Made by a program: the position numbers and the translations under genes
From: Gammaproteobacteria bacterium
GTDB lineage: Bacteria > Pseudomonadota > Gammaproteobacteria > JADZEE01
Length of the DNA stretch: 64,000 nt
Direction: 5' to 3'
Assembly (NCBI GenBank): GCA_965225625.1
Contig: CBDDBH010000025.1
Span: forward strand, 96,152-160,151
Shown here: positions 17,223 through 18,475 of the stretch, piece by piece
Numbering within the stretch: the first letter of the stretch is position 1
Layout of the letters: every line of letters starts with the position of its first letter
The notes under the pieces: model-generated
What the model saw: the letters and a program-made list of their open reading frames with translations, nothing else
What the model was told of the DNA's origin: nothing
The model's database searches: none

Positions 17223-18475
17223 ATGTTTGAAGGTCTTGAAAGGCTGATTTACACCGGTGGTGGGCATATCTTTCGAGAGGGAACTCCCGGAGACCGCGCG
17301 TACCTCATCGAGGATGGGAGCGTTGAGGTATATACCGGGCACGGAAAGATGCACCAACGAGTGTGTATTCTCACCGAGGGTGAACTCTTTGGAGAAGTCG
17401 CGCTGATTGATAATCAGCCTCGCACGGCGACCGTCACAGCCTTAGAGGAAACTCGCGTTGTAAGCATTCCTCGGGATTTGCTCGAATCGAAGTTGGCCAA
17501 ACAAGACCCGGTGGTTGAGCATCTACTGCGCGTCATATTGAAACGGTTTCGAAATACCCAAAATCAACTGTCACAGCCAAATCGGTTATTTCCGGCAAAA
17601 TCAATCCACGACCCTGATGAGGCGCTTTCCAAAACACAAAAAAACTTAATCCAGCATATAACGATTGTCTCAGACATCAACGACGCTCTCAAAAACAACG
17701 AGTTTCGACTCTTTTATCAGCCCATCATCTCGCTGAAAGACAACCAACTGGTCGGCTTTGAAGCATTATTACGCTGGGAACATCCTGAAAAGGGCATGAT
17801 CCCGCCTATGGAATTTCTGAATGTGGCGGAACAAACCGATCAGATTCTCCCAATAGGAATTTGGACCTTAAAGTGTGCCTGCGATGAGATAAACGAGTTG
17901 ACTGAACATGCGTCGGACGCCTCTTCAGCCTCACCTTTGTTTGTGAGCGTTAATCTGCCCCCCCCCCCCCCCCCCCCCCCCCCCCCCCCCCCCCCCCCCG
18001 GCAGTTGACCAAAGCAGAAGAAGCCACGCAGTTCGCAAAAATCCTCGACCGAGCGGGCATAGACCCCGCTCGTATCAAACTGGAAGTTACGGAAACCGTG
18101 TTCATCGAAGAACCAGAGGCGACGCAACAGATGTTGTCATCACTGCGCGCTCTGGGGTTCGGCGTGTCCCTGGACGATTTCGGAACTGGTTATTCAAGTT
18201 TGAGCCATTTACAGAAATTCGGATTAGACGATATAAAGATTGATCAAAGTTTTGTCAGACGCATGCACTCTGACGGCAACAGTTTGAAAATTGTCAAAGC
18301 CTCGATCGATCTAGCCAGGGCACTGGGCATTGGAATGATTGCCGAGGGCGTTGAAACCAAAGAAGATGCCGAGCGACTTGCTGCAATGAATTGTTCCTAT
18401 GCCCAAGGATATTACTACGCGAAACCGTTACCCCTGTCGGAAGCTAAAAAATACTCGCCACGCACTACTCGATGA
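17223..18475 (+). pseudogene. cNMP-binding-domain plus EAL-domain protein (c-di-GMP phosphodiesterase-like), interrupted by a 42-nt poly-C tract
   Basis: The N-terminus has a CRP-like cNMP-binding domain. The EAL domain, LRWEHPEKGMIPPMEFLNVAEQ ... VSVNL, runs into the C tract. The downstream frame continues RQLTKAEEATQF...LEVTETV... (EAL). The two halves are in different frames. Confidence 0.6.
17958..17999. repeat. Homopolymeric C tract (42 nt) inside the EAL-domain coding sequence
   Basis: Direct count from the sequence: ctg + 42 c + ggcagttgacc. Confidence 0.9.

Follow-up and report, generated by a model that had tools for sequence, protein, structure and literature searches.

A 42-nt cytosine tract within a predicted cyclic-nucleotide-sensing EAL phosphodiesterase gene of an uncultured IS-rich bacterium

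In the window (the whole stretch of DNA analysed, 64,000 nucleotides), a pure, uninterrupted run of 42 C on the sense strand divides a gene whose intact form is predicted to encode a Bd1971-type, cyclic-nucleotide-sensing EAL c-di-GMP phosphodiesterase. Judged from its sequence, the phosphodiesterase of this allele is dead, because the truncated protein lacks the catalytic motifs EVTE, DDFGTGYSS, KIDQSF and EGVE. Near-identical contigs carry the same gene uninterrupted. We lean, with slight confidence, towards the tract being a real, lineage-specific loss-of-function expansion of uncertain length. Whichever holds, the enzyme is a new member of a known family, and what is seen in its gene is either an artefact or a known kind of lesion in extreme form.

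The C42 run and the gene that it divides

The run (Table 1), which corresponds to poly-G on the template strand, is bordered by ...GTTAATCTG on the left and GGCAGTTGACC... on the right (also given as ...GTGAGCGTTAATCTG and GGCAGTTGACCAAAG...). The runner-up C run in the whole 64-kb window is 7 nt, the longest G run is 6 nt, the longest A or T run is 8 nt, and no second C/G tract of at least 9 nt was found in the window. By arithmetic, approximately 2e-19 runs like C42 are expected by chance in 64 kb at C = 27.7%. Moreover, in 1.01 Mb of other loci compared, no homopolymer of at least 10 nt was found except the same tract in one contig (L003) of the Logan assemblies. The tract reported at this place by an earlier, sequence-only reading of the window is thus confirmed as uninterrupted and unique in the 64 kb. 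The flanks of the tract (17950..18004) form an inverted repeat, CTGCC...GGCAG, which in the wild type is an imperfect quasi-palindrome with a bulged T, CTG(T)CC CC CC GGCAG.

The upstream part of the gene matches Pfam cNMP_binding (4e-21) and positions 3-87 of the EAL profile (1.7e-21), and its codons are identical to residues 1-245 of the intact 405-aa protein. The downstream part matches EAL positions 95-236 of 236 (5.3e-46) and includes the motifs EVTE, DDFGTGYSS, KIDQSF, EGVE and QGYYY. The tract begins at codon 246 of 405, 60% into the gene, inside VNL-SP-RQL. The two parts lie in different frames (17223 mod 3 = 0, 17999 mod 3 = 2), and the frame closes only at 3n+1 C (40 or 43), that is, with two C fewer or one C more. 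No single polypeptide combining cNMP_binding with a complete EAL domain is present in the window as written, the domain being split between the frames; a 156-aa product starting from TTG 18005 is annotated on the 180,118-bp source contig.

These results bear out the sequence-only reading in its description of a cNMP-binding/EAL c-di-GMP phosphodiesterase gene (Pfam matches on both halves), of an EAL domain cut exactly at VNLS-RQL (the break falls in VNL/SP/RQL) and of a downstream half in another frame. Its statement that the length of the tract leaves the gene out of frame holds for the sequence as written, but the exact count of 42 is not trustworthy, whether the tract is real or an artefact, because the same contig has clusters of homopolymer-length errors elsewhere.

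Table 1. Coordinates in the window of the divided gene, its neighbours and the IS elements. L001, ERZ21829562 ctg256229l; L002, ERZ28669063 ctg81944; L006, ERZ28763709 contig_38.
Feature	Position	Strand	Basis or remark
N-terminal 245 codons: cNMP-binding and first third of EAL, through VNL	17223..17957	+	Pfam; identity to intact protein
ORF as written, 261 aa, ...FVSVNL-P14-GS-stop	17223..18008	+	TGA 18006..18008
C42 run	17958..17999	+	
C-terminal 158 codons, RQLTKAEE...PRTTR then stop	17999..18475	+	Pfam EAL
Isochorismatase-family gene, frameshifted, 46 nt after EAL stop	18522..19239	+	Intact 236 aa in L001/L002
SBP_bac_3 solute-binding gene, divergent, upstream, frameshifted	16360..17092	-	Intact 243 aa in L001, L002 and L006
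Alpha/beta-hydrolase gene, intact, 15 nt after isochorismatase gene	19255..20019	+	Pfam
IS630-family (DDE_3) copies, two, >99% identical, 1.1 kb	10599..11709 and 50838..51948		
IS110-family element	21545..22609		
rve-family IS	42650..43672		

The best solved relative of the intact allele is Bd1971 (6HQ4; E = 1.1e-73, residues 16-395 against 11-390), and the alignment is gapless at the tract site. The intact allele has the full EAL signature set, namely EALxR, (V/I)N(L/I/V)S, ExxE, DDFGTGYSS, KxD, EGVE and QG, found as EALLR at position 180, VNLS at 243, EVTE at 276, DDFGTGYSS at 306, KIDQSF at 327, EGVE at 363 and QGYYY at 383. The catalytic roles of these signature residues are known from established EAL structural work, and the Asn just before the tract (VN of VNLS) is presumably a ligand of the catalytic metal, as established for EAL domains. 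As in Bd1971, the layout is that of a full-length two-domain protein, with an N-terminal cNMP-binding sensor followed by a C-terminal EAL domain, and the cNMP phosphate-binding cassette is conserved (FGEVALIDNQPRTA here, FGEMALIDNQNRSA in Bd1971). Unlike Bd1971, to which the relationship is distant, the window copy is interrupted by the tract. Bd1971, from Bdellovibrio bacteriovorus (PDB 6HQ4/6HQ5/6HQ7), senses cAMP and acts as an EAL c-di-GMP phosphodiesterase (Cadby et al. 2019, PMC6717892), and stimulation of c-di-GMP hydrolysis by cAMP/cNMP has been demonstrated for Bd1971 only (PMC6717892).

The closest homologs of the intact protein in a collection of 5.8 billion proteins are 61% identical and come mostly from metagenomes or MAGs, the named top match being from a Gammaproteobacteria MAG. 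The best match among GTDB representative genomes, from a Bdellovibrionales MAG, is only 37% identical, and there is therefore no orthologous DNA there for codon comparison. In addition, the GlnA of the sister contig has its nearest match at 72-75% identity, with mixed phylum labels.

Intact alleles and the state of the neighbouring genes

Relatives of the locus were found by looking up exact matches to the product of the neighbouring hydrolase gene. Two metagenome contigs of long-read style, ENA ERZ21829562 ctg256229l (L001, 365 kb) and ENA ERZ28669063 ctg81944 (L002, 72 kb), match the window at approximately 99.9% identity across more than 12 kb, and both carry an intact, single 405-aa cNMP_binding+EAL gene. 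At the tract site both read CTG TCC CCC CGG, encoding Leu-Ser-Pro-Arg (VNL-SP-RQL; aligned sequence CTGTCCCCCCGG). A short C-run at this codon, which the sequence-only reading had proposed to look for in orthologs, is thus found as C6 after T. Relative to these contigs, TCCCCCC has become C42 in the window, a T-to-C change plus 35 extra C, with every flanking base colinear. On this comparison, TCCCCCC is the ancestral sequence.

Two further features of the relatives fall in this gene or next to it. In ERZ21829562 ctg256229l, an extra IS630-family insertion (L001 7053..7949, window position ~17193) lies between the SBP and EAL genes and is found neither in the window nor in L002. Meanwhile, ERZ28763709 contig_38 (L006, 298 kb) ends within the EAL gene, at the window equivalent of 17522, ~435 nt upstream of the tract site; this end may be a coincidence or an assembly break near the tract.

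Both immediate neighbours of the EAL gene are frameshifted in the window. Specifically, the isochorismatase-family gene is disrupted by a 7-nt tandem duplication (GGCACTG at 18839..18845), which is present in the window and in L003 and absent from L001/L002; its truncated 117-aa product occurs on the source contig and on L003. The lesion of the divergent SBP_bac_3 gene is one extra G at 16985 (GG to GGG), private to the window in comparison with the related contigs L004, L005 and L006. The Logan contig L007 ends exactly at 16985. The spacing and orientation of the alpha/beta-hydrolase gene make it probable that it is transcribed together with the EAL gene. The two frameshifted neighbours fit local gene decay in an IS-rich genome.

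Origin of the tract

The evidence that bears most directly on the reality of the tract comes from the Logan assemblies, which use k=31 and keep only k-mers seen at least twice per accession. Contig L003 of run ERR14231558 (3232 bp) opens with exactly C26 followed by GGCAG and matches window 17974..21205 at 100% identity, the 7-nt duplication and a variant at 19626 included. Because only 31-mers seen at least twice are kept, at least two reads or occurrences in ERR14231558 carry at least 26 C, and the Logan assembly of this run lacks the wild-type junction. A gap in coverage within the tract, in low-coverage data, would account for the stop of L003 at C26; in Logan, this organism is represented by short contigs, which end at non-repeat positions too.

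The window is probably not simply a consensus of the reads of ERR14231558/ERR14231557, because it has private substitutions at 14674 and 58224, where every other covering assembly, including the Logan contigs L007 (14674) and L066 (58224), has T instead of C. The shared poly-C and 7-nt duplication therefore look inherited. The adjacent duplication is itself an ordinary type of real mutation and is reproduced by L003. As a side observation, the substitutions at 14674 and 58224 are both T-to-C, as is the change at the 5' edge of the tract.

There is a considerable chance, short of an even one, that the tract is instead a sequencing or assembly artefact and that the true sequence is TCCCCCC or a much shorter run. 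In that case, a few noisy or low-coverage long reads may have miscalled the C6 (by nanopore motor stall or PacBio polymerase pausing), followed by weak polishing. The source contig must be a long-read assembly, because it spans the two 1.1-kb IS630 copies that are >99% identical, and assemblers of this class need polishing for sequencing errors, mostly homopolymer errors. Such errors are apparent on the same contig. Compared with ERZ21829562 ctg257166l (L063), 43699..46181 contains 12 single-base indels and one SNP in ~2.5 kb; most of the indels fall in short homopolymers, with the window one base longer at 8 of the 12 sites, and MarR-like, lumazine-binding-like and TehB-like genes, intact in L063, are disrupted by them. 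The indel-to-substitution ratio of 12 to 1 marks this stretch as an error signature rather than evolution, and polishing of the contig seems to have been poor in this patch, with essentially no such indels in ~30 kb compared with relatives elsewhere in the window. The broken products of the patch and the product of the 16985 frameshift are found only on the 180-kb contig and are absent from Logan; the Logan contig L188 ends at ~46296, before the first indel of the patch. Moreover, the tract lies within a 1.9-kb cluster of private indels, consisting of the extra G at 16985 (1 kb away), the tract and the 7-nt duplication.

Long C/G runs are also common in public metagenome assemblies, with runs of at least 42 nt on at least 120 contigs in a JGI scan, and the tract shares their length class. 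Among the matches listed there are 144 runs of at least 30 nt, of which 94 lie within 150 nt of the end of a stretch, and many are impure. To our knowledge, a 42-nt G:C tract is at least twice the length of the tracts described in bacteria, none of which approaches 42 nt. In a survey of 99 genomes, tracts were modelled to a maximum of 20 nt, and those above 7 nt were generally not over-represented. Against an artefact stand the presence of at least 26 C at two or more k-mer occurrences in ERR14231558 and the unassembled wild-type junction.

Several properties of the run set it apart from such artefacts. Most of the artefactual runs listed are terminal or interrupted, whereas this run is pure, is internal to a 180-kb contig rather than at a contig end, and replaces exactly 7 nt. 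It does not join unrelated sequences, its flanks being colinear with two assemblies, and it is partly reproduced by a second assembly, which contains its right junction and the neighbouring 7-nt duplication. No context-driven systematic error is evident, because other long-read assemblies correctly read the identical context as C6. Features of long-read error are present, namely the pre-existing C6 and the 12 indels on the same contig, but the usual long-read homopolymer error is plus or minus 1-2 bases, and a gain of 35 is far from this mode. Taken together, the prior favours an artefact, and the specific evidence (purity, internal position, colinear flanks, a right junction reproduced together with a linked mutation, no wild-type junction in that run and a correct reading of the context in other assemblies) favours a real allele. 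The artefact and the fixed inactivating mutation that the sequence-only reading had named both stand as valid alternatives, with the C26 junction in L003 speaking for the mutation and the homopolymer errors in the contig against it.

Other technical or mutational origins were considered and rejected. A two-colour (dark-cycle) poly-G artefact can neither make the left junction CTG+C(n) nor remove the T. A De Bruijn chimeric join via a poly-C node is at odds with the colinear flanks and with a contig that spans repeats only long reads resolve. A mismatch-repair-deficient mutator does not agree with indels that are clustered and outnumber substitutions 12 to 1 in the patch, or with the lack of other long tracts. 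In the JGI metagenomes, no exact match to the 24-nt left flank was found. Among the long C/G runs listed from the JGI scan, many of the internal ones cluster in two projects, Ga0179591 and Ga0179593.

The sequence-only reading had also suggested a hypermutable contingency tract with phase-variable expression. Changes in its length would turn the phosphodiesterase, or the operon that follows, ON and OFF and make c-di-GMP signalling phase-variable. We regard such a switch as very improbable, even though G:C homopolymers within coding sequences are a classic substrate of phase variation and the loss of two C or the gain of one would restore the frame. The 26 C of the Logan contig could be length heterogeneity, for which a coverage gap is an equally good explanation. 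The tract resembles the contingency loci of Neisseria, Campylobacter, Haemophilus, Helicobacter and Bordetella in being a G:C homopolymer in a coding sequence whose length sets the frame, and in its presumed mutational mechanism, slipped-strand mispairing. Known contingency tracts are about 7-20 nt long and usually lie near the 5' end or promoter, with several such loci in one genome and a working product when in frame. In contrast, the present tract is 42 nt long, is single in 64 kb, where no other tract reaches 9 nt, and lies mid-gene in the catalytic core, away from the 5' end and the promoter, with no possible functional in-frame state.

The absence of a functional ON state follows from conservation at the site, as all 120 homologs (120/120) keep fixed spacing and an invariant Ser, and their longest Pro run anywhere is 3. 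Specifically, the pattern [VILMA]-N-[LIVMF]-S-x-x-[QE]-[LI] occurs in 120/120, with 118 having Q-L or Q-I and three having E-L, and the solved homolog Bd1971 has no gap there. Even an in-frame C40 or C43 would give VNL-P13/14-RQL, in which the invariant Ser is lost and ~12 prolines are added beside the metal-binding Asn, so the tract cannot be a reversible switch. Only two states of the site were seen, TCCCCCC (L001/L002) and the long run, with 42 C in the window and at least 26 in L003, and the sole functional allele among them is the interrupted TCCCCCC. In a collection of 15 billion proteins, neither in-frame P13/P14 alleles nor the C7 intermediate with a Ser-to-Pro change were found. The N-terminal half followed by P5 to P10 was likewise not found in the protein collection, and of the right-junction products, the P7 and P9 versions are not on record and only the P8 form, from L003, is. 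Additionally, the gene that follows in the apparent operon has a frameshift of its own, and a switch in the tract could therefore not restore the unit. The suggestion of phase variation is thus contradicted by the fixed site in the 120 homologs, by the lack of in-frame or intermediate alleles on record and by the lack of a second tract in the 64 kb.

Another view of a real tract, which we consider unlikely, is that it is heritable, common to at least two sub-lineages (that of the window and the ERR14231558 strain) and variable in length, and that it may form a G-quadruplex or i-motif and modulate transcription of the EAL-isochorismatase-hydrolase unit. If this heritable, length-variable reading were true, no longer poly(dC).poly(dG) tract would be known from a bacterial chromosome.

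For the expansion that we favour, with loss of function as its outcome, a two-step origin can be proposed. The starting point would be C6 preceded by T, within the small quasi-palindrome CTG(T)CC..GGCAG. The T would have been lost or changed to C, leaving an uninterrupted C run; a possible route for this first step is quasi-palindrome correction, in which the loss of the bulged T would make the palindrome perfect. Slipped-strand mispairing in replication may then have expanded the run to several tens of C, presumably free of selection once the gene was already inactive. The product would be a run of 42 C as assembled, at least 26 in a separate k-mer assembly and possibly heterogeneous, in an SBP / EAL / isochorismatase neighbourhood that appears to be decaying in an IS-rich genome. 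Such a lesion resembles the frameshift pseudogenes of IS-rich or host-restricted lineages, in that a private frameshift arises at an existing short homopolymer beside disrupted genes and IS copies. It differs from typical slippage pseudogenes in its size, +35 here against the usual plus or minus 1-2 nt.

If the tract is real, it represents an extreme runaway homopolymer expansion that cuts a cAMP-to-c-di-GMP link in one uncultured IS-rich lineage, and it would serve mainly as a data point on how long a G:C tract a bacterial chromosome can bear. As an artefact, it would instead be a caution for the annotation of long-read MAGs; this contig also has patches of homopolymer indels that give rise to false pseudogenes. 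Under either reading, there is no new mechanism and no open question is settled.

IS elements, rearrangement and other loci in the window

Synteny between the window and L001/L002 stops at 22943, just past the IS110-family element (Table 1), and the DNA that follows in the window is found in ERZ21829562 on another contig, of 683 kb, an arrangement suggestive of an IS-linked rearrangement. Moreover, in comparison with L063, the window has a 356-bp deletion at 30887..30892 between AAT(T)GTG microhomologies. The TonB-dependent receptor affected by it has 778 aa in L063 and is a 619-aa ORF in the window. The receptor deletion and the IS-linked rearrangements are other cases of real structural decay in the same lineage.

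Two further loci were noted. A 177-aa Rieske ORF at 45209..45742 is identical in the window and in L063. It is probably a truncated remnant in both strains, because it falls in a cluster at >=90% identity with 381-aa proteins on large ENA contigs. In addition, the gene at 35927..37315 on the minus strand matches the NCBIfam CUAEP/CCAEP-tail radical SAM (seleno)protein model (2e-183, above the curated cut-off), and it is located near genes encoding a PhyH-family dioxygenase, an ATP-grasp protein and caprolactamase/hydantoinase-like proteins.
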